Assembly (NCBI GenBank): GCA_030390025.1
Contig: CM059431.1
Coordinates: forward strand, 104,534,001 to 104,598,000
Length of the DNA: 64,000 nt
Reading direction: 5' to 3'
From: Squalus acanthias
Lineage: Eukaryota
The position numbers and the translations under genes were made by a program. The notes beneath the pieces were generated by a model. The model saw only the letters and a program-made list of their open reading frames with translations, was not told the DNA's origin and made no database searches. This document shows, in pieces, positions 3,887-56,818 of this stretch; position 1 is the first letter of the stretch; each line of letters begins with the position of its first letter.

Positions 3887-4102
3887 GGAACCTGTCCTGA
3901 AATACTTCTCTCTCTTTCTCACCATATAATTATTTGTTTTCCTCTGTTTTCCTTCTGTTTGTGTTCTACTCTTCTTTTTCATTCTTACTCTGTGTGTGGC
4001 TCTCAAACAGTTTTCTCAATGCAGTTTTGGTATCTTGGTGTTCACTTCTGACTATCTTTCTCATTGTTTCTGCAGGTCTTTCCTTCCTCTTGACAACTTA
4101 AT

Positions 4103-4958
4103 GGGCTGGATTTTGAATCTGGGGTCGGGTTGGGGTCGGGAATCACACATTTTGGCTTGTGAACCCGCCTCCATTGAGATGTGGCCAACCCACTGTATTT
4201 TCCCTTGATTGACCTTGTTGAGCCCGCCCAGTGGGCTCAGCAGGCCAATTAATGGCCACCCAGCAACAGGTGACGTCGCAGACTGATATTTCATCTGTCA
4301 AGAGCTTTTGACAGATGAAATATCAACGTTTGACAGCTCTGTGAAGCTGTCAAACACTGACAATATGATTTCTAACTTCAGTCCTTCCTCTCAGACTGAG
4401 TTAGAAATCATTCCACCACAGAAAACAGAAGGCTGCAGTTTTTGACAGAACCACGGCTTTCCTGCTTTCTGTGCCGGTGAGATTTCTAACTCCCGAGAAC
4501 TGAAATGCTGACACCTGCAGGAGGAAGTTAAGGTAAGTAAAACTTTTTCCAACACTTAGCACTTACCTTACACACTTACCTCTGCACACATGCACCCATC
4601 ACTCACCTGCCCACCGGACATATCGACCCCTCCAACCCCTGCAGACCCACGGCCCGCCCTGATAACTTGGCGTGGTAGCCACCTGTCGGGAAGCCCACAC
4701 TTTTCTTTTTAAAATAGGGATTATGCAAAAAACTGCCTGTTAACTACCTGTTAACAGGCAGTTAATTGTCACTAATCCCTTCCCGCCTCGGGGAGTCGGG
4801 TCTCAGAACAGGTCGGGTACCCGCCGCCAGAGAAACTGGCATGGAGGCGGGTTGGAGGCGGGATGGGGTCGGGACCCCCGAATCTGCAACTTTAACACCC
4901 CCCCCCCCCCCCCCCCCGCCTCCAAACCTGACTCCACGGGTCATTGCAAATCCAGCCC
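4103..4958. mobile_element. About 850-bp non-autonomous Harbinger-like element
   Basis: TIRs GGGCTGGATTT/AAATCCAGCCC, flanks AAT/AAA. Inverted near-identical copy at 8786-9634. Confidence 0.85.
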
Positions 4959-8785: not shown

Positions 8786-9634
8786 GGGCTGGATTTTCAA
8801 TGACCCGTGGAGCCGGGTTTGGAGTCGGGGGGGGTGGGGGGTTAAAGTTGCAGATTCGGGGGTCCCAACCCCATCCCGCCTCCAACCCGCCTCCATGCCA
8901 GTTTCTCTGGCAGCGGGTACCCGACCTGTGCTGAGACCCGACTCCCCGAGGCGGGAAGGGATTAGTGACAATTAACTGCCTGTTAACAGGTAGTTAACAG
9001 GCAGTTTTTTGCATAATCCCTATTTTAAAAGGTGAAATGTGGGCTTTCCGACAGGTGGCAACCATGCCAAGTTATCGGGGCGGGCCGTGGGTCTGCAGGG
9101 GCTGGAGGGGTCGATATGTCCGGTGGGCAGGTGAGTGATGGGTGCATATGTGCAGAGGTAAGTGTGTAAGGTAAGTGCTAAGTGTGGGAAAAAGTTTTAC
9201 TTACCTTAATTTCCTCCTGCAGGTGTCAGCCCTTCAGTTCTCGGGAGTCAGAAATCTCATCGGCACAGGAAGCAGAAAAGCCGTGGTCCTGTCAAAAACT
9301 GCAGCCTTCTGTTTTCTGTGGTGGAATGATTTCTAACTCAGCCTGAGAGGAAGGACTGAAGTTAGAAATCATATTGTCAGTGTTTGACAGCTTCACAGAG
9401 CTGTCAAACGCTGATATTTCATCAGTCAAAAGCTCTTGACAGATGAAATGTCAATCCGTGACGTCACCTGTTGCCGGGTGGCCCTTAATTGGCCTGCTGA
9501 GCCCACTGGGCAGGCTCAACAAGGTCAATCAAGGGAAAATACAATGGGTTGGCCACATCTCGATGGAGGCGGGTTTACAAGCCAAAATGTGGGATTCACG
9601 ACACCAACCCGACCCCAGTATCAAAATCCAGCCC
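8786..9634. mobile_element. About 850-bp non-autonomous Harbinger-like element
   Basis: Perfect TIRs GGGCTGGATTTT/AAAATCCAGCCC and exact AAT TSD. Confidence 0.9.
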
Positions 9635-9783
9635 AATGGGTGCAGTGACTGAAATAATAGGTGAGACAAATAATCAAATAAACGCCACTTTCATTTCATT
9701 ACATTACAGTACATTGGCTGAATATATGTATTTTGTTATAGCGATAATTTCTAAGTGAAACTTTTGATACAGTCAACGAATGC

Positions 9784-16492: not shown

Positions 16493-16744
16493 GGATTTGT
16501 TTTCATTAGAGGAAAGGAGGTTGAGGGGTGATTTGATAGAGGTGTACAAGATTATGACGGGTTTGGATAGGCTAGACAGGGAAAGGCTGTTCCCACTAGT
16601 TGATGGTACAAGGACTAGGGGACACAGATTTAAGGTTTTGGACAAGAGATACAGGGGGGGATGTGAGGAAAAAGTTTTTTACACAGCGAGTGGTGAGGAC
16701 CTGGAATTCGCTGCCAATGGAAGTGGTGGAAGCGGAGACACTCA
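16493..16744 (+). mobile_element. CR1 LINE 3' fragment
   Basis: Reads LFSLEERRLRGDLIEVYKI...TRGHRFKV...FFTQRVVRTWNSLP. Confidence 0.85.
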
Positions 16745-17052
16745 GGGCTGGATTTTTTCTTGGGGTCGGGTTGGGGTCGTGTAATCCGCATTTCGTGTTC
16801 CCCCCCCGACTCCAGATTAATGTGGATGCCTGATACAATTTTCACTTAATTGGGCAACTGAGTTGCAGCATGTGGGAACCCATGAACTAATTAGTGGTTT
16901 CAGTCTGAAACCCGCCTCTGATGATGTCATCATTGCTGACTGCCTGCTCTCAGAGATTGCCTGGCTACTGGTGAGAGACGACCTGTCTGCATTGCTTCTG
17001 ATGTGAGTAGACCTGGATGCAAATGAGAGAGACAGAGAATGAGAGAGAGAAT

Positions 17053-17083
<31 letters not shown>

Positions 17084-17706
17084 GCATCCAAGTCCTCTTA
17101 CACCAAATATCAGTAACGACTTTCACACCTAATACTACTACTACCTTCATCACATCTCCATTGTAATAGTGGACTTGCAGCCGATAGTCAGCTATCCATT
17201 TGTGCTCCCGCCAGGTTTCACTGGAGTGTTTCACACCAGGCGTGCTTCACGTCAAAAAAAGGTTAAACTAGCTACAACGTTTCAAAATAGCATTACAGAC
17301 CCAATTTAGGGCTTGTTAAGGGCTTTAATGGCCTCTCCCGCCTCTTGGAGGCGGGAGAGAGTCAGGAACCCCGCAACTGATTTTGTCAAAATTGCGTGGA
17401 GGTGGGATGGAGTCGGGATGGCGTCGGAAACCCCGACCCTGCAAATTTAACCCCCCACACGCCTCCAAACCCGACTCCATGGGTCATTCAAAATCTCTGA
17501 GAGCAGGCAGTCAGCAATGATGACATCATCAGAGGCGGGTTTCAAACTGAAACCACTAATTAGTTCATGGGTTCCCACATGCAGCAACTCAATTGCCCAA
17601 TTAAGTGAAAATTGCATCAGGCATCCACATTAATCTGGAGTCGGGGGGGGGAACACGAAATGCGGTTTACACGACCCCAACCCGACCCCAAGACAAAATC
17701 CAGCCC
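16745..17706. mobile_element. Fused pair of Harbinger-like MITEs forming about 214-bp inverted arms
   Basis: 16745-16958 is the reverse complement of 17492-17706. The body matches the 49655-50383 family. Confidence 0.8.
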
Positions 17707-18096
17707 TATGACTCTTGCAGAGCAAGAGATTGGCCCACCCACACAGTAGAGGGATTTATCTTTTCTTTCATTCCGCCTCACTGGTCTATAAGGATAGTTT
17801 CTTTTCTTCGAAGTCTCTGAAGGAGTAGAAACTAAAGTATCCACTTTTTCCAACAAAACAATACAAAGTTCGGAGTCGATGAAAAGAGGGGGGAAAGATC
17901 CCTCACTACCATGTGATGCAAACCTGCTGGAGAAAACCTGGCTGAGCTTTTTGCCTTCTATAACTTTTTTTGCTGGAAGTGCAATCAATTATTTTAGTGC
18001 AGTGGCTCAGAGATGGCAAAGAATAGAATTTACAAGCAGGCTGGGATCCCTCTGTGCATCAGGCAACCCACACAGCCAAAGCGTGTTTAGATGCCT

Positions 18097-18360
18097 GAGT
18101 GATACCCACCCTGCTGTATGCCTCAGAGACATAGACCATGTACAGCAGGCACCTCAAAGCACTGGAGAGGTACCACCAACGCTGCCTCCGCAAGATCCTG
18201 CAAATCCATTGGCAGGATAGGCGCACCAACGTCAGTGTTCTCGCGCAGGCCAACATCCCCAGCATCGAAGCTTTGAACACGCTCGATCAGCTCCGATGGA
18301 TGGGCCACATCGTCCGCATGTCTGATATGAGACTCCCAAAACAAGCGCTCTACTCGGACC
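18097..18360 (+). mobile_element. RTE-clade LINE fragment, 5' part of a split copy
   Basis: Reads YSRHLKALERYHQRCLRKILQIHWQDRRTN...QLRWMGHIVRM.D.RLPKQALYS. Confidence 0.8.
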
Positions 18361-18908
18361 TTTCCCCCCTCTTTTCATCGACTCCGAACTTTGTATCGTT
18401 TTGTTGGAAAAAGTGGATGCTTTAGTTTCTACTCCTTCGGAGACTTCGAAGAAAATAAACTATCCTTATAGACCAGTGAGGGGGAATGAAAGAAAAGATA
18501 AATCCCTCTACTGTGTGGGTGGGCCAATCTCTTGCTCTACAAGAATCATAGGGGGAAAAATTAGGTCGCGCACCGTTTGGGGCGCAAATATCGTCTGGAC
18601 GCAAAAATTAGCGCCTGGCGCTAATTATCGCCACTGACTGGAAACTTCACTTTTACCGCCCCGGGAGGTGAGTGGAGCGCTAAATCATGCGCTGCACACC
18701 TGTCTTAAGGCGCAAAGGCCGAGCAGTGAGGCGCTAACTCAGCGCGCGAGCGCAGCGCAGGTGCTGCCAGTTAGCGAGGGAACACAGACACACTGGCGCC
18801 AGCCAGTTCTTAAAGCGGGGGGGCCAACTTGCTCCCCAGCCACACCCTGCTCATTGCAGCCTTGAATCTCGGCCTGGAGAGACCTGTGAATCCATTTTGC
18901 TGCCAAGG

Positions 18909-20728
18909 ATGGAGAGGGTGAGAGAACGAGCTCAGCGCTTCATCGAGCGGGCCTTGGATGCTCTGGTTGGCGCGGTGGAGCGCAGAAGATCTATACTCTT
19001 CCCTGAGAGTGGCAGGAGGCCTTTGCCACGCGAGTACAGAAGAATGTGGAGGGAGGTGGCTCAGAGCGTCTCCTCCAGGAGCATGGTGCCCAGGACCCAT
19101 GTTCAATGCCGCAAAAAGTTCAACGACCTCACTCGGGTCGTCAGGGTGAGTGGCTTTTTCTCAATACCTCTCCATCCCTCCATCTCAACCTCACTCTAAG
19201 GCCAGAGGGTCTTAAAACCCCAATGCACAACACTCATCCAACACCTATGGCCCTTTCATGAAACACACACACACATTCCACACTTTGCATACAGTAAGGG
19301 CTATTCACCTATGGGAGGCACATCAGGCAAGACCATGGCTGCATACAGTAAGGGCTATTCACCTATGGGAGGCACATCAGGCAAGACCATGGCTGTATAT
19401 TTACTCAGATGCTGTCCTTTTTCTTGCAGGCCAAGCTGGCGCATAATAGGAGACAGCAACAACGGACAGGTGGAGGGCGGCTTCAGCTGCAACCCCTCAG
19501 CGATCTTGAGGAGCGCGTCCACAGGATTGTGGCAAGCCGGGTGATCGGTCCCGTCGCCACTGGAGATGCTGACCCCGTTCTGGACAGCAATGGTAAGGTC
19601 ATCACCTTTTTGTCCTCTGTCCTTCCACTTGTCCCTCACAACACCAGCCTTTGACACTTTCAATCCAACTTGCTAACTCGCTGCACTTATTCCTCCCTTA
19701 CTGCCACCCTGTCCTCACGCTAAAGCCACTCTTGTACCTCCCTGCTTTCAGATGGTGATTCACCAGCTGAGGAGACGGGCCCTGAAGCTGCCAGTGGGAG
19801 TGAAGCTGCAGCCGAGGAGGAAGAGGGAGCCGGAGCATCAGTGCCACCCTCTCCCGAGGAAGCCCATGCCCACACTGGGAATACGCCTTCCCTGGAGGGG
19901 AGCAGGGGGGAAGGGTCTGATGAGGGTGAAGCTCCAGGACCCAGCGGGCTGCAGCAACGCCATGGGGGTAGGGAAGAACGGGGGCCTTCTCCCCAGAGGG
20001 AGAATATGCCAGCGACTCCTACTGCAATGGACGCAGAGGAGGAGCGGCTGATCGCAGAAATGAACACCCAGGCGGTGGGCATGCACACTGAGCTCATGGG
20101 TGCAGTGGGAAGGGTGCCCGAATGCATTGAGTCACTGGCAAGGAGTGTGGAGCACTTCGATGTAACACAGGCGGATGCCACACTAAAGCTTAGTGCTGCA
20201 ATTCAGTCACTGACTGCCGTGATCCCATCTCTGACTGCTCTCATGCAGACTCAGATTGAGGCCACGCGAGCACTGACTGCTGCCAACCTCGATGGTTCGT
20301 TCACATGTCCCCGGGGCTCTCACCGCGCCGCAGCAGGCCAGCAATCTGTGCTCCAGCAGATTGCTCCGGATGCTGAAGTGCTGCCCCGTGGGAGTGCCAG
20401 TGTGTCGGTCGAGCAGGGAGTTGCTGTCCTCTCTCACGATGACAGCATTCCTGCTGCCAACACTGTCACTTCTCCACTGCACTTGCCACCGCCTGTAGGA
20501 CAGACTGCTGCCGCCCATGCAGAGTTGGTGCAGTCTGCAGCCGGGCCCTCCAGGCCCAGAACTGGTCGAGGCCGTCCTTCAGGGGCAGCTGCAGTGTCAG
20601 GGTCTGACAATCAGCAGCCTTCCACCAGCCTTGCTGCAGCCACTGAGGTCCCATTATGGAGGAGCAGTAGGGTTAGAAGGGGGGAAGTGCGCAAGGGAAG
20701 GAGATCACCCTCGAAGGGAAAAAAGTAG
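18909..20728 (+). CDS. Harbinger Myb/SANT-like DNA-binding protein; join(18909-19145,19430-19592,19752-20728), 458 aa
   Basis: Exon 1 has RAQRF...L.ALV.AVERRRSILF...MWREVAQSV...RTHVQCRKKFNDL. Exon 2 starts AKLAHNRRQQQRTGGG. Canonical sites GTGAGT/TTGCAG and GTAAGG/TTTCAG keep one open frame (237+163+977 nt). AATAAA near 20906. Confidence 0.88.
19286..19395 (+). repeat. Perfect 54-bp tandem duplication in Myb intron 1
   Basis: TGCATACAGTAAGGGCTATTCACCTATGGGAGGCACATCAGGCAAGACCATGGC occurs twice. Confidence 0.9.
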
Positions 20729-21040
20729 GAGGTGTGACAAAATGCTGGTCATTTTTTTATTAAAGGCCGAGGTTCGTGGTCCAACTTTTGTTTAGTGTTT
20801 TGGACATTATCTCCAGGTTGTGAGAACCAGTTATGTTAATGACTGTTTTTTTGTGTTTATTTCTATGAGTTTGTCATGAGGAAATGACACACACAGAGTT
20901 TGTAAAATAAATAAGTTTTTGTATTCAAAATATACATGTTTGGTGTTTGGAATCATTGGTGCCTTGGCCGGCTTAGGGGTTGCGTGCTGGGTTCATTGAT
21001 GTTGTTAGCAATGGCAGAAGCCATTTCCACAGCAGGGGCC

Positions 21041-22201
21041 CTAGAAGCAGCTTGCTATCAGCCGTTGACGGACGGCCCTTGCAGTTTCACCATTGTGGGC
21101 CGCCCTCCCGCCTTGGTGCTGCTGATGATCATCCTCCTCGTCCTCTTCCTCCTCTTCCTCCTCCTCCTCTGGTGGTGCTCCAAGGCCTGGTGGCATTGGC
21201 TGGGTCCTGAGGATTGCCATGTTATGCAACATGCAGCACACAACTACGAAGTTGGATACTCGCTCAGGCGAGTACTGCAGGGCTCCTCCAGAATGGTCGA
21301 GACAGCGGAACCGTTGCTTCAGCACGCCGATTGTGCGCTCAATGATGTTCCTGGTAGCTTGATGGCTCTCGTTGTACCGCAGCTCAGCAGGGGTGTTGGG
21401 CGTACGGAGCGGTGTCATCAGCCAGGTGCTCAATGGATACCCCTTGTCCCCGAGAAGCCAACCAACTGGCTGATGCGGTGCCTCGAAAAGTTCTGCCACA
21501 GTAGTCTGGCGCAGGATGAAAGCATCGTGGCAGCTGCCAGGATAGTGGGCATTGACAGCGAGTATCAGCTGTCTGTGGTCACAGACCAACTGAACATTCA
21601 AGGAATGGAACCCCTTTCTGTTCCGGAAATCCTCGGCATTGTCATGTGGAGCACGCAAAGCCACATGCGTGCAGTCAATGGCGCCCTGCACCATGGGGAA
21701 GCCCGCTATCCTCACAAAGCCCAGAGCGCGGTCACGCTGCTTTTCTAGGGTCATGGGGAAAGAGATGAACTCTCGTCTCCTTTTAAATAGGGCATTTGTG
21801 GCCTGCCGGATGCAGCAATGCACCGCGAACTGGGAGATATTGGCGAGGTCCCCAGCAGCAGCTTGAAATGAGCCAGTAGCATAGAAGTTGAGAGCCACTG
21901 TGACCTTCACTGCCACCGACAGAGACGTCCTGGACTTCAGTTGAGGCTGCAGATCTGGCTGCAGCAGGTGGCAGAGCTCAGTGACCACCTCCTTGCTGAA
22001 TCGCAGCCTTCGCAAACACAGCTCCTCAGACATATGAATGTAGGAGAGCTGTTCACGATATACCCTGGGAGGGTAAGCTCTCCTGTACAGACGCCTGTTG
22101 GCCCTCCTCCGTCTGGCCATCATTGCCACTCTCTCTCTGCGTCTCTGTGTCCTCCGATTCAGCTGGAGCAGGACGACGCCCCAATTCAGTGCAGCCCCCA
22201 T
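21041..22201 (-). CDS. Harbinger DDE transposase (HARBI1-like family), 386 aa from the first ATG
   Basis: Uninterrupted ORF with LRFSKE, ALNFYATGS, GAIDCTHV (D), FRNRKG.HSLNVQLVCD, PGSCHDA, LLGDKGY (D), RNIIERTIGVLKQRFRCL (E), CCMLHN. Confidence 0.95.
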   Translation of the reverse strand: MGAALNWGVVLLQLNRRTQRRRERVAMMARRRRANRRLYRRAYPPRVYREQLSYIHMSEELCLRRLRFSKEVVTELCHLLQPDLQPQLKSRTSLSVAVKVTVALNFYATGSFQAAAGDLANISQFAVHCCIRQATNALFKRRREFISFPMTLEKQRDRALGFVRIAGFPMVQGAIDCTHVALRAPHDNAEDFRNRKGFHSLNVQLVCDHRQLILAVNAHYPGSCHDAFILRQTTVAELFEAPHQPVGWLLGDKGYPLSTWLMTPLRTPNTPAELRYNESHQATRNIIERTIGVLKQRFRCLDHSGGALQYSPERVSNFVVVCCMLHNMAILRTQPMPPGLGAPPEEEEEEEEEDEEDDHQQHQGGRAAHNGETARAVRQRLIASCF

Positions 22202-22389
22202 AGTCTCTTTGCAAGCAAAGTTATGAAGGACAGCAACCAAAGTACCAGCGAAGTTAGGATCAGTAGGCAACACTACCTCACAAAGCGTTGACTTAATGCA
22301 GAAGTCTCTCTTTCTCTCTCTCCGAATCTCTCTCTCTCTCTCAGAACGAGTGGTGCAAAAATGTCAACCACAGAAAAAGACAGGAAGAG

Positions 22390-22545
22390 GCCCCCTTTAA
22401 ATAGCGCCCCCCCCAGCCCCACAGCGATTGATAGCGTTCCAGTCTTCCGGTCGTTGGATGCGCCAGGCGGTAAGGCAGGGGGCGCCACTCAATTTCCGCT
22501 CCGGGGCGCCACAAGGGCGTTGCACCATGGAATGACGTCACAATC
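22390..22545 (-). promoter_or_regulatory. Putative transposase promoter
   Basis: Minus-strand TATTTAAA near 22395-22402 and a TGACGTCA palindrome at 22533-22540. Both are retained in the derivatives at 22724 and 59211. Confidence 0.45.
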
Positions 22546-22723
22546 TGCGCGCGCAGGTGGTCGCGGCGGTAAAGTTTAGCGCCGCCGCACAATGTCTAGT
22601 AAAGTTCCCGAGCGGCGCAAACATCGCTGCGCCCGGGCGCTAGCAGCTTTGCGCCCCATTAGCGCCCTCTTAAGGCGCTAACGGGAGGCGCAACCAACTG
22701 AATTTTTCCCCCATAGAGTCATA

Positions 22724-23618
22724 GGGGGAGAAATTCAGTATCACCCCATTTGGGGCGCAATTATCGGCCGGGCGCAAAGATTAGCGCCTGGCGCTAATTA
22801 TCGCCACCGACTGCAAACTTGACTTTTATCGCCCCTGGAGGTGATTGCAGCGCTAAATCAGGCGCTTCACACCTGTCTTAAGGCGCAAAGGCCGAGGAGC
22901 GAGGCGCTACCTCAGAGCGCTGGCGAAGCTCATGTAATGTCAGTCAGCAATGGAACACACACACAATGGCACGGGTCAGTTCTTAAAGGGGATGGTTGAT
23001 CTTGCTTTCCATCCACATCCTGCTCATTGCAGCCTTGAATCTCGGCCTGGAGAGACCTGCACATCAAATCTGCTAGAAAGAACAATGGAGAGTACCAGGC
23101 AAAGAGCTCAGAGTGCAGCCCCCACAATCTCTTCTAAATCGATGCAAGGAATGGCAAATCAAAATGAACCTGCAAAGTGCTGCTCAGCACCCAAAACTCC
23201 TTCTCACAACGTTGAATCTCTCCAGAAGTCTCTCTCTCTCTCTCTCTCAGAATGCGTAGCTCAAAAATGGCACCAACAATAAAAGGCAGGAGGCGGTCAC
23301 CTTTAAATAGCGCTCCCCCTTTCCCTTCATGACTGCAGAACGCTCCCCTCAACCTGTCGTTGCTAGCATCAGGCGGTAAGGCAGGGGGCGCCACTCAATA
23401 TCCGCTCCGGGGCGATACCGGGTTGTTGCGCACTCGACTGACGTCACGATCTGCCGGCGCAGGAGATCGTGGCGGTAGTGTTTAGCGCTGCCGCAAAATG
23501 TCTAGTTAATTTCGCAAGCGGCGCAAACTTCGCCGCGTCTGGGCGCTAGATGCTTTGCGTCCCATTAGCGCCCTCTTAAGGCGCTAACGGGAGGCGCAAC
23601 CAACTGAATTTTTCCCCC
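22724..23618. mobile_element. Non-autonomous internal-deletion relative of the autonomous Harbinger (895 bp)
   Basis: TIRs GGGGGAGAAATTCAGT/ACTGAATTTTTCCCCC, TSD ATA. Both ends align with the ends of 18551-22712. Confidence 0.92.
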
Positions 23619-23930
23619 ATAGAATCATAACGGCACAGAAAGAGGCCATTCGGCCCATCGAGTCCGTGCTGGCTCTCTGTAGAGCAATCCAGTCAGTTCC
23701 ATTCCCCCGCTCTATCCCCGTAGCCCTGCAAGTTTATTTCCCTCAAGTGCCTATCCAGTCTCCCCTTGCAAACATTGAGTGTCTCCGCTTCCACCACTTC
23801 CGTCAGCAGCGAATTCCAGGTCCTCAGCACTCGCTGCGTAAAAAAGTTTTTCCTCACATCCCCCCTGTATCTCTTGCCCAAAACCTTAAATCTGTGTCCC
23901 CTAGTCCTTGTACCATCAACTAGTGGGAAC
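23619..23930 (-). mobile_element. CR1 LINE 3' end whose tail hosts the two Harbinger elements
   Basis: Reads LFPLVDGTRTRGHRFKVLGKRYRGDVRKNFFTQRV, followed by 3' UTR and an (ATAGAATC)-type tail. Confidence 0.88.
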
Positions 23931-24262
23931 AAGGACACCCTCAAAGCCTCCTTGAAAAAGTGCAACATCCCCACTGACACCTGGGAATCCCTGGCCCAAG
24001 ACCGCAGAAAGTGGAGGAGAAGCATCCAGGAAGGCGCCGAACACCTCGAGTCTCTTCACCGGGAGCAAGCGGAAGCCTAGCGCGAACAGCGCAAGGAGCG
24101 CACGTCAACCCAAGCACCCCACCCACCCACCCCTTCAACCACCGTCTGCCCCACCTGTGACAGAGACTGTAGGTCCCGCTTGGACTCATCAGTCACCTGA
24201 GAACTCATTTTTAATGTGGAAGCAAGTCATCCTCAGTTCCGAGGGACTGCCTAAGAAGAAGG
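23931..24262 (+). mobile_element. RTE-clade LINE 3' end, continuation of 18097-18360
   Basis: Reads KDTLKASLKKCNIPTDTWESLAQDRRKWRRSIQEG, then a C2H2-like remnant and a TAAGAAGAAG tail. Confidence 0.8.
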
Positions 24263-42864: not shown

Positions 42865-43575
42865 GGGCTGGAATTTTCTCAATGGGGGCGCGTTGGGGGC
42901 GGGACTGCTGTTTGTCGGGTTTCAGTCCCACCCCTAATGATGTCCGGCCAACCCACGCTATTTTCCCGTGGCTGACCTTGTTAAGCCCGCCCAGCGGGCT
43001 TAGCCGGCCAAATAAGGGAAAGCCGGTGACAGAGGACGTCAGAGTATGACGTTTCATCTGTTAAACATTTTTGCCAGATGAATTGTCAGCGTTTCACAGC
43101 TTTGAGACACTGACAATCTCTGTTCTATGGTGAGCCCTTGCACAAAGACTCACCAAAATCTCTTTCCTCTGCAGAAATCAGATGGTTGTTGCATCGGAGA
43201 ATGCAGCAGCCATTCTGTCATCTCTGCCGTTGAGATGAGGCACCTCCGGATCCCCAAGGGTTGAAGCCTGCAGAAAGAAGCAAAGGTAAGTAAACTTTTT
43301 CCAACATTTTACACTCACCTCCCATACTTACCTCTCCACACTTGCACCCATCACTCACCTCCACAATTAACTACCTGTTAACAGGCAGTTAATTGGCTCT
43401 AATCCCCTTCCCGCCTCGAAGAGGCGGGTCCCTGCGCGAGTCAGGGACCCGCCTCCCGTGAAGATGACACAGAGGCGGGTTGGGAATGGGTTCGGTACCC
43501 GCTCCCAGTTTCTGCCATTTTCCCAGCAGTCCCGCCTCCATACCCACCTCCTGAGGGCTGGGAAAATTTACCCCC
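42865..43575. mobile_element. Non-autonomous Harbinger-like element inserted in a CR1 tail
   Basis: Ends GGGCTGGAATTTT/AAAATTTACCCCC, TSD GAT. Tail resumes as GTAATTCTATGA. Confidence 0.8.
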
Positions 43576-49654: not shown

Positions 49655-50383
49655 GGGCTGGATTTTCAATGACCCGTGGAGTCGGGTTTGGAGGCGTGTG
49701 GGGGGTTAAAGTTGCAGATTCGGGGTCCTGACCCCATCCCGACTCCATTCCGCCTCCACGCAATTTTGACAAAATCGGTCGCGGGGTTCCCGACTCCGTC
49801 CCGCCTCCAAGAGGTGGGAGAGGCCATTAACGCCCTTAGCAAGGCCTAAATTGGCTCTGTAATGCCATTTTGAAACGTTTTAGCTAGTTTAATCCTTTTC
49901 CGACGTGAAGTACGCCTGATGTGAAACACACCAGTGAAACCTGGCAGGAGCACAAGTGGATAGCTGACTATCAGCTGCAGGTCCACTATTACAACGGAGA
50001 TGTGATGAAGGTAGTAGTAGTATTGTGATGAAGGTAGTAGTAGTATTAGGTCTGAAAGTCGCCTCTGATGCTGCTGCATTGAATGTCTTCAGAGACTGTC
50101 TCTCTCTCTCTCTCTTGCTCTCTCTCTCTCAGATGCTGCTCATTTTGCATCCAAGTCCTCTCACAGCAAAGGCCATGCAATCTCTGGACCCAGGCAGTCT
50201 CTGACCTGCAATGATGACATCATCAGAGGCGACTTTCAGACTGAAACCACTAATTGGTTCATGGGTTCCCACATGCTGGAACTCAATTGCCCAATTAGGT
50301 GAAAATTGCATCAATCTCCCACATCCAATTGCAGGCGGGTGGATAACACGACCCCAACCCGCTCCAGTATCAAAATCCAGCCC
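49655..50383. mobile_element. About 730-bp non-autonomous Harbinger-like element
   Basis: Perfect TIRs GGGCTGGATTTT/AAAATCCAGCCC, TSD TTT. Confidence 0.88.
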
Positions 50384-55656: not shown

Positions 55657-56818
55657 AATGCGTTCGTGAGGAAGAGCGATGCCACTTTTTTGCTGTCCGT
55701 CAGCAACACCGTTTGACGAGCTATTAACTCGTGCCAAAGTTGCGTTTTCTCACCTCACCAACAATATGTCCTTCCACCCCAATAAAAAGAGGGGGGAAAA
55801 AAAGCTGCAAATGTTGGAAATCTGAATTTAAAACAAAAAAGCCGCGAATGCAAGTGACTCAACATCTGTAATCGGGAAAGATGGATTAGTGTTTGGGGCA
55901 TTATTGGATTCTGATGGACCTGTTGTGTATTTCTAACATTTTGTATTTTTATTTTCACCGCCTTTTGTTACATTTTCACTCTCCAATAGTGCCACTCATC
56001 TTCGTCTATCTCTAATGTTCCACACCAGATAGGCTAGCAGAATGGGCAGACAAGTGGCAGATGCAATTTAATACAACGAAGTGTGAGGTGATGCATTTTG
56101 GCAGAAGGAACAGGGAGAGGCAATATACACTTAATGGCACAGTTTTAAAGAGTGCGCAGGGACAGAGGGACCTGGGAGTCATAGAGTCATAGGGTTATAA
56201 TGGCACAGAAGGAGGCCATTCGGCCCATCGAGTCCGTGCCGGCTCTTTGTAGAGCAATCCAGTCAGTCCCATTCCCCCGAGTTAATGTGCATAGGTCCCT
56301 GAAGGTGGCGGGACATATTGAGAGAGAGGTTAACAAAGCATATGGGATCTTGGGCTTCATAAATAGAGGTATTTTGTCTAATTATGTTCTGCAAAACGCC
56401 TTGGGATGTTTCTGTTACTGTGTAAGGGCAAGTTGCTGTTGATGTATTCCAATCAGAACTCTGAAAGAGAAATTCCGACCCTACCTCTGGGTTAGCAGCT
56501 GACCCCCTTGCCTGCCCAACACACCTTTACACAGCCACAAACCACTACACATTGCAGTGAAGTAACTGAACAGTTCAAAGAAATGTCACTAAAAAGGAGG
56601 ACCAGAAACACGCAGATGTTTCAACTTCAAACAGCCATTCGCAGATACTTCAAACTCTGCGCTTACATAATAACAGTGACTGCTCTCAAAAAACAATCCA
56701 TTGTAACAACAACAACTTGCATTTATATAGCGCCTGTAACATAGTAAAATGATTCCAAGGCGCTTCACAGGAGCGATTATCAAACAACATTTGTCACCAA
56801 GCCACATAAAGAGATATT

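Follow-up and report, generated by a model that had tools for sequence, protein, structure and literature searches.

Harbinger Insertions at CR1 Tails in Squalus acanthias: Probable Coincidence of a Target Motif with a Matching Tail Variant

Results and Discussion

In a 64,000-nucleotide stretch of the Squalus acanthias genome (assembly GCA_030390025.1, contig CM059431.1, positions 104,534,001 to 104,598,000; hereafter the window, whose first base is position 1 in all coordinates below), two Harbinger DNA transposons, elements A and B, occupy neighboring units of the 8-bp tail repeat of a CR1-like long interspersed nuclear element (LINE). Enrichment of Harbinger ends at such tails, their fixed phase, the underlying target motif, the dependence on one tail variant, the fill of matched control sites and the use of both orientations are direct observations, which we describe in turn. 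In our assessment, the hot spot is likely to be the known target preference of Harbinger elements coinciding with a matching variant of the CR1 tail, rather than targeting of the tail as a safe harbor.

Two Harbinger Elements in Adjacent Units of One CR1 Tail

Element A (18551–22712) is an autonomous two-gene Harbinger (PHIS) transposon of 4,162 bp, with perfect 12-bp terminal inverted repeats and an ATA target duplication, and is 97.7–99.0% identical to 29/29 other sampled copies when the best aligned piece of each is considered. Its minus strand encodes, at 21041–22201, a DDE transposase with an open frame of 386 amino acids (Pfam DDE_Tnp_4, E = 7.7e-41), in which acidic motifs, taken here to be the catalytic ones, start at residues 173, 224, 250 and 286; a sequence search for solved structures returned none matching this transposase. 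The plus strand carries a Myb/SANT-like partner gene at 18909–20728 (Pfam Myb_DNA-bind_5, E = 4.6e-09), with predicted exons at 18909–19145, 19430–19592 and 19752–20728 that leave 458 amino acids open, the GT–AG junctions having been chosen by eye. We note a 54-bp tandem duplication at 19286–19399, in the first predicted intron of this gene, and that several relatives align as two pieces near these positions. Family members are also found nested in or beside other members (sampled loci L022, with a second match at 1944, and L065:75), the copy in L022 having landed at an ATA in an A-type element, within its Myb-like exon.

Element B (22724–23618) is an 895-bp non-autonomous relative that shares its 3′ terminus with A and likewise has an ATA duplication. 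It is 82–84% identical to both ends of A, and 29 copies selected for their closeness to B match it at 94–97% identity. Because the relatives of A are 97.7–99.0% identical to A, compared to 94–97% in the case of B, B is probably the older insertion and not a hop of A.

Both elements are flanked on each side by ATA, run in the same direction and lie 11 bp apart, with a spacer (22713–22723, minus strand) that reads ATA GAGTC ATA and so consists of a CR1 tail unit and a single target duplication. Removing A and B with one ATA each yields AAGAATC ATA GAGTC ATA GAATCATA, followed by the minus-strand CR1 3′ end, and the first-pass annotation was correct in describing two insertions in adjacent tail units, in the same phase, whose removal restores the tail. 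The host sequence is split by the insertions into an inner tail unit with the 3′ end (23619–23931, minus strand, with units ATTCTATG and ACTCTATG at its 3′ end) and an outer tail unit with its flank (18356–18550), the latter belonging to the right-hand copy of an inverted duplication and being 96% identical to 17704–17901 inverted. Only a 3′ fragment of the host is present, which fits a CR1 LINE, the label coming from the 8-bp tail and from a C-terminal motif of open reading frame 2 (ORF2) that we take to be that of CR1, not from a family scan. The tail unit in the empty site is the reverse complement of ATTCTATG, which fits the consensus ATTCTRTG given for the 8-bp CR1 3′ microsatellite in the available text of PMC8665684; the unit in the middle has the variant form ACTCTATG.

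Harbinger Ends Are Enriched at CR1 Tails Genome-Wide

The 25-base 3′ end common to A and B occurs exactly 10,392 times in the 3.71-Gb genome. These ends are followed by TATGAYTC in 638 cases and by ATAGARTC in 520, covering both orientations, such that a strict tail 8-mer adjoins 1,158 of 10,392 ends (11.1%), an approximately 1,300-fold enrichment over the background frequency of 8.7e-5 (38 hits in 220 kb). The first-pass annotation had staked its proposal on an enrichment of tails among insertion sites across the genome, and that enrichment is present: it is genuine, general and not confined to the window.

A second view is provided by 93 loci that were picked by internal sequence only, of which five (L001, L032, L033, L035 and L074, being duplicates or the window itself) were dropped to leave 88 sites. 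Tails, as judged by eye, hold 26 of these 88 (95% interval 20–40%), comprising copies chosen by A (9/30), by B (10/29) and by the common 3′ end (7/29), with 62 sites lying elsewhere, and the 3-bp duplication is perfect in 50 of the 55 sampled copies with both flanks. A second family, with ends in GGGCTGGATTTT, has 72,543 exact ends, of which ∼3.4% adjoin a strict tail unit (based on 46 of the first 100 of 5,318). CR1 3′ transduction of a single tail-borne element was considered as a source of these associations and set aside, since the tail sites draw on three types of element, on both orientations and on several different CR1 3′ ends. A literature search that did not extend to subscription journals or to Repbase, where these families may be described, brought up no report of Harbinger elements inserting into the tails of CR1.

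Sites outside Tails Define an Extended Palindromic Motif

A target logo of the kind suggested in the first-pass annotation was built from the 62 non-tail insertions. It is palindromic, with A-R-A-S-W-C, a 3-bp A/T-rich core and G-W-S-T-Y-T. Among the 101 half-sites that these insertions provide, the preferred base is A at position −6 in 75, A or G at −5 in 88, A at −4 in 81, C or G at −3 in 66, A or T at −2 in 84 and C at −1 in 66, giving an extended preference of 0.4–0.9 bit at positions −6, −5, −4, −2 and −1. The commonest core is ATA/TAT, which is found at 15/62 non-tail sites compared to 3.1% of the background (weight 7.9, interval 4.6–12). The A/B and GGGCTGGATTTT families seem to share the flanking motif and to differ in the core, ATA/TAT in the former and AAA in the latter.

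The GAGTC unit fits this motif on both sides of ATA. The tail is not the optimum of the motif, however: its second half-site reaches 2.2 bits out of a maximum of 7.2, compared to 6.4 bits for the half-site AAACAC of the zebrafish element Harbinger3_DR. We also note a site of the form aggaac-CAA that accounts for 4/88 sampled insertions but for only ∼47 of 10,392 when counted by exact 8-mers.

Insertion Depends on a Single Base of the Tail Unit

The first-pass annotation had named GAATC as the hot unit. Our counts point instead to GAGTC, whose doublets make up 3,957 of the 25,556 empty tail doublets genome-wide and which nevertheless adjoins ∼83% of the tail-adjacent A/B ends (∼80 of the first 100 of 520, and 86 of the first 100 of 638). 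Expressed as the fraction of sites filled by A/B elements, the GAGTC doublet reaches 11–16%, whereas the GAATC or mixed doublet reaches 0.89%. The canonical GAATC tail is about five times commoner than GAGTC, and is filled no more often than a control site inside the same CR1 family, ∼157 bp from the tail, where ∼89 insertions (estimated from 70 of the first 100 of 127) stand against 10,243 empty copies, or 0.86%. At a second repeat-internal control site, A/B fill is 0.65%.

For the second family, a hot site of comparable strength also exists outside tails. The GGGCTGGATTTT family has 786 ends adjoining one site in CR1 ORF2, with an AAA core (its context is seen in L064:1526 and L065), which corresponds to 16–29% filled, depending on whether 4,226 (wide pattern) or 1,911 (narrow pattern) empty copies are counted; the same family fills 17–22% of G tails. 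Summed over both families, 28–36% of G-variant doublets are filled.

A position matrix built from the 88 sites and 220 kb of background was rejected as a full quantitative model, since it failed at the tail (1–3% predicted compared to 11% seen) and failed equally at the control sites, underestimating the G tail 23-fold, the A tail 11-fold and two non-tail sites 13- and 41-fold. Because all four of these repeat-borne sites exceed the simple matrix, the tail is not the outlier. With half-site weights calibrated genome-wide, the residual excess is 4.6–6.9-fold at the G tail, compared to 3.5-fold at the internal control.

The same numbers bear on a regional or temporal effect, whereby young CR1 copies would lie in regions that are accessible in the germ line and tolerant of insertion. 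Such an effect would add to the motif rather than replace it, and we regard it as a possible but unlikely contributor. It would be in line with the 11–41-fold excess over the matrix at all four CR1- or repeat-derived sites, as well as with the greater density of G doublets at the start of contig C1 (25 in the first 100) than genome-wide. However, it leaves unexplained both the fixed phase of the insertions and the 12- to 18-fold difference in fill between two sites of one CR1 family that are separated by ∼157 bp, and a flat matrix from 93–101 half-sites would underestimate strong sites in any case.

Stacked Neighbors

A second element lies exactly 11 bp away from 185 A/B ends, including the pair in the window, which belongs to one set of 92 such junctions. 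The spacer is GAGTC in 183 of the 185. By eye, the neighbor starts with GGGGG in 109 cases, GGGCT in 43, GGGGT in 32 and GGGCG in one. Of 169 distinct junctions, 16 join two elements tail to tail. Three-element stacks, with two 11-bp junctions ∼900 bp apart, were found at C12:73751844–73752783, C6:39356528–39357463, C12:83935254–83936193 and C3267:40879–41816. The shared orientation of A and B was rejected as a general feature, given the tail-to-tail junctions and the 638 and 520 ends in the two orientations.

Adjacent pairs could in principle be produced by local hopping, or by recombination between tail units, and the former was the alternative offered for A and B in the first-pass annotation. 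The abundance of neighbors at exactly 11 bp, the predominance of GGGGG starts among them, and four places with three elements in a row are all what such a process would leave behind. Nevertheless, we consider it very improbable as the source of the pairs. A and B share just 82–84% identity and are of different age, so hopping is not needed for this pair; at least 43 of the 185 neighbors come from another family; the tail-to-tail junctions also stand against it; and the pair rate, 185 compared to 1,158 or ∼16% of tail-adjacent ends (the end patterns being slightly different), lies within the 28–36% summed fill per site. Independent insertion would therefore suffice for the pairs, with some local hopping possible.

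Probable Explanation: A Target Preference That Meets a LINE Tail

The mechanism that we favor is as follows. The Harbinger families studied here would read an extended palindromic target of ∼15 bp, possibly by direct read-out through the proteins of the element, and duplicate its 3-bp A/T-rich core. Because the period of the CR1 tail is 8 = 5 + 3, the GAGTC variant would place GAGTC on both sides of each ATA, creating what should be a good half-site in either direction around the core that the A/B family favors. Each G tail would then offer two or three adjoining targets, repeated over thousands of tails, and the next unit would stay usable after an insertion, such that independent insertions by different families and at different times could stack 11 bp apart.

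The alternative closest to the first-pass annotation, which had suggested that the system favors the tail repeat as an abundant safe landing site, is an adaptive safe harbor, in which either selection has tuned the A/B lineage to the CR1 tail (through a core shift to ATA/TAT and tolerance of T at −2), or the tandem (GAGTCATA)n is recognized as such. The ∼1,300-fold enrichment, the filling of 28–36% of G doublets when families are summed, the 4.6–6.9-fold residual over the empirical model, and an ATA/TAT core where Harbinger3_DR has CWG would all be compatible with this idea. We consider it improbable, as 62 of the 88 sampled insertions lie outside tails and share a motif whose optimum is not the tail; the abundant GAATC tail is filled like the internal site (0.89% and 0.86%, respectively); the flanking motif fits a zebrafish element that is described, in the available text of PMC3016246, without CR1; and a non-tail site in CR1 ORF2 is equally hot for the second family. 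A safe-harbor mechanism is unneeded because of the motif, the variant dependence, the matched control, the calibration and the non-tail hot spot taken together.

Several points weigh against reading the hot spot as a coincidence of motif and tail variant. The position matrix alone predicts that 1.0–1.7% of ends adjoin tails (bootstrap 0.7–3.2%), compared to the 11.1% seen, and the model approaches the data only once empirical weights are used, which may still leave a modest tail-specific excess beyond the motif (4.6–6.9-fold, compared to 3.5-fold at the control). The empirical weights may themselves be inflated and hide a real tail excess: among the 100 flanks used to obtain them, 31 were classed as non-tail, many of which differ from a tail unit at a single base and could be tails that have decayed. 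The prediction for the internal control is loose (core weight 0.89, interval 0.11–3.09), and all non-tail sites tested for the A/B family are filled below the level of the G tail. The count of 786 ORF2-adjacent ends leaves their left flanks unread; several fills rest on proportions among the first 100 ends, mostly from contig C1; the G-tail fill assumes that an estimated 50–80% of G-adjacent ends are in full doublets; and small contigs may duplicate chromosome sequence in the genome-wide counts. Finally, stacked neighbors lean toward like families (GGGGG in 109/185), perhaps beyond what independence would give.

A more specific proposal, to which we give little credence, is that the A/B lineage has shifted its core to ATA/TAT by selection, or captures overlapping tandem targets cooperatively, and has become specialized on the GAGTC tail of a young CR1 family. 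If so, with about one-third of G tail sites filled, a DNA transposon would be parasitizing the 3′ end that a LINE is thought to need for retrotransposition, selection against that tail variant would be possible, and two mobile elements would be in conflict over 8 bases. Likewise, if the small tail residual is genuine, it would represent a rare instance in which a DNA transposon has adapted to the tail of a LINE.

The coincidence of motif and tail variant has its own implications. A known preference can mimic a safe-harbor strategy, with a single base (GAGTC or GAATC) changing the fill ∼12-fold or more, which calls for caution in claims of repeat-specific targeting. In addition, the genome offers over 10,000 copies that are young, nearly identical and readable in their targets, a natural resource for studying the target code of Harbinger elements.

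The Inverted Duplication and Other Insertions in the Window

The host CR1 end and ∼195 bp of its flank are present twice in the window, inverted, as 17704–17901 matches 18356–18553 inverted at 96% identity, and 16588–16744 matches 23776–23931 inverted at 95%. This bears out the duplicate copy of the tail described in the first-pass annotation. The segments 16588–17901 and 18356–23931 form a local inverted duplication with a 454-bp spacer. The right copy breaks the reading frame of a LINE that we take to be RTE-like, which stops near 18359 and resumes near 23932, and loose contig ends at 23930–23931 in four public runs, where contigs of other copies swamp the locus, agree with this break. The right copy also removes a short piece of this LINE and resembles a templated repair insertion.

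In the left-hand copy of the CR1 3′ region (16588–16744, plus strand, 95% identical to 23776–23931 inverted), a stretch of ∼160 bp that should separate the internal site from the tail is gone, and two insertions follow. Element C1 (16745–17495) is a ∼750-bp miniature inverted-repeat transposable element (MITE) of the GGGCTGGATTTT-ended family with its last few bases missing, inserted at the CR1-internal motif site GACAC TCA, which is also used in loci L012 and L038; it is 82% identical to 49655–50383 over 722 bp. Element C2 (17492–17706) retains 215 bp from the end of a second copy, which lies in the opposite orientation to C1; it has a 96.7% inverted match to 16745–16958, and AATC is common to both at the C1/C2 junction. 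The end of C2 at 17706 precedes TATGACTC, in the tail position homologous to the site of A. The first-pass annotation had read this end as an insertion of a different family into the duplicate tail; the position stands, but the stretch 16745–17706 is a composite of two inverted copies with no matching target duplication (TCA on the left, TAT on the right).

From its sequence, 16745–17706 appears to be two inverted copies of one MITE, fused by a deletion with 4 bp of microhomology (AATC). A single element with an adjacent deletion was set aside in favor of this reading, and copying of the left end by a template switch is a further possible alternative. The two hot spots used by C1 and C2 are ∼160 bp apart in one CR1, and the fused product has the appearance of a novel element whose inverted termini measure 215 bp. 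In this way, paired hot spots that receive stacked and inverted insertions may seed deletions, with 16745–17706 as an example. Most likely, the duplicated tail was hit three times, and the internal site once, after the duplication.

Elsewhere in the window, the fourth element of the first-pass annotation (42865–43575) is, as it had proposed, in another CR1 tail: it is an older Harbinger-type MITE, bounded by a GAT duplication and located in the first unit of that tail, which is degenerate. Two 809-bp inverted arms at 4102–4910 and 8827–9635, which are GGGCTGGATTTT-family MITEs, are 95% identical and 3.9 kb apart; AAT lies next to the outermost end of each arm (4103 and 9634), so that the 5.5 kb as a whole may form one composite unit. 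At 56176–56192, an empty GAGTC doublet, GAGTCATAGAGTCATA, provides a predicted target without an insertion.

Comparison with Known Systems

Element A has the features of the PIF/Harbinger (PHIS) superfamily, namely a DDE_Tnp_4 transposase, a Myb/SANT gene, terminal repeats with a 3-bp duplication, and a 9–15 bp preference. The available text of Han et al. 2015 (PMC4482050) divides PHIS elements by their duplication into PIF/Harbinger (TWA), NuwaI (CWG), NuwaII (C|TNA|G) and Pangu (ANT), and describes the same two-gene organization of DDE and Myb/SANT, a length of ∼4.1 kb, G-starting termini and a 3-bp duplication. The core spectrum here (ATA, CAA, AAA, TAA and ATG) fits none of these groups cleanly, in a comparison made by core and not by phylogeny. 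TAA/TTA is found at 8/62 non-tail sites, unlike the narrow TWA of PIF/Harbinger, and CAG/CTG at 1/62, unlike the CWG of NuwaI; the C before and G after the core resemble NuwaII, with C beside the core in 66/101 half-sites, but TNA in only 12/62 cores (TAA/TTA in 8, TCA/TGA in 4).

The closest likeness in target choice is to zebrafish Harbinger3_DR and Harbinger3N_DR, for which the available texts of PMC3016246 and PMC2836001 describe a DDE transposase with a Myb-like partner, a 3-bp duplication and a palindromic 15-bp target, AAACACCWGGTCTTT in PMC3016246 for Harbinger3_DR. The shark elements share the two genes, the duplication and the palindrome, and both zebrafish half-sites, AAACAC and GTCTTT, fit the shark motif; no more extended version of the Harbinger3_DR consensus turned up in a literature search. 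The zebrafish core is CWG, as far as described there, while the shark core is loose and A/T-rich (ATA/TAT in 15/62), and it is in the shark that the motif meets a LINE tail variant, giving thousands of hot spots and stacked insertions.

An extended preference of 9–15 bp beyond the duplication is stated for all characterized members of the superfamily, including plant PIF and mPing, in the available text of PMC2836001. The plant elements are similar to those described here in having such a preference, with a different motif, and that text does not mention a coincidence with a LINE tail.

A final comparison is with Dada, Pokey and the microsatellite-targeting CryptonV, which insert specifically in a multicopy repeat according to the available text of PMC8869645. 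The shark elements resemble these in inserting repeatedly at one position of a repeat and, probably, in reading its primary sequence. They differ in that tails account for 26/88 sampled sites and 1,158/10,392 strict ends, with ∼70% of the sampled sites lying outside them, and in that several other sequences match the motif besides the repeat.

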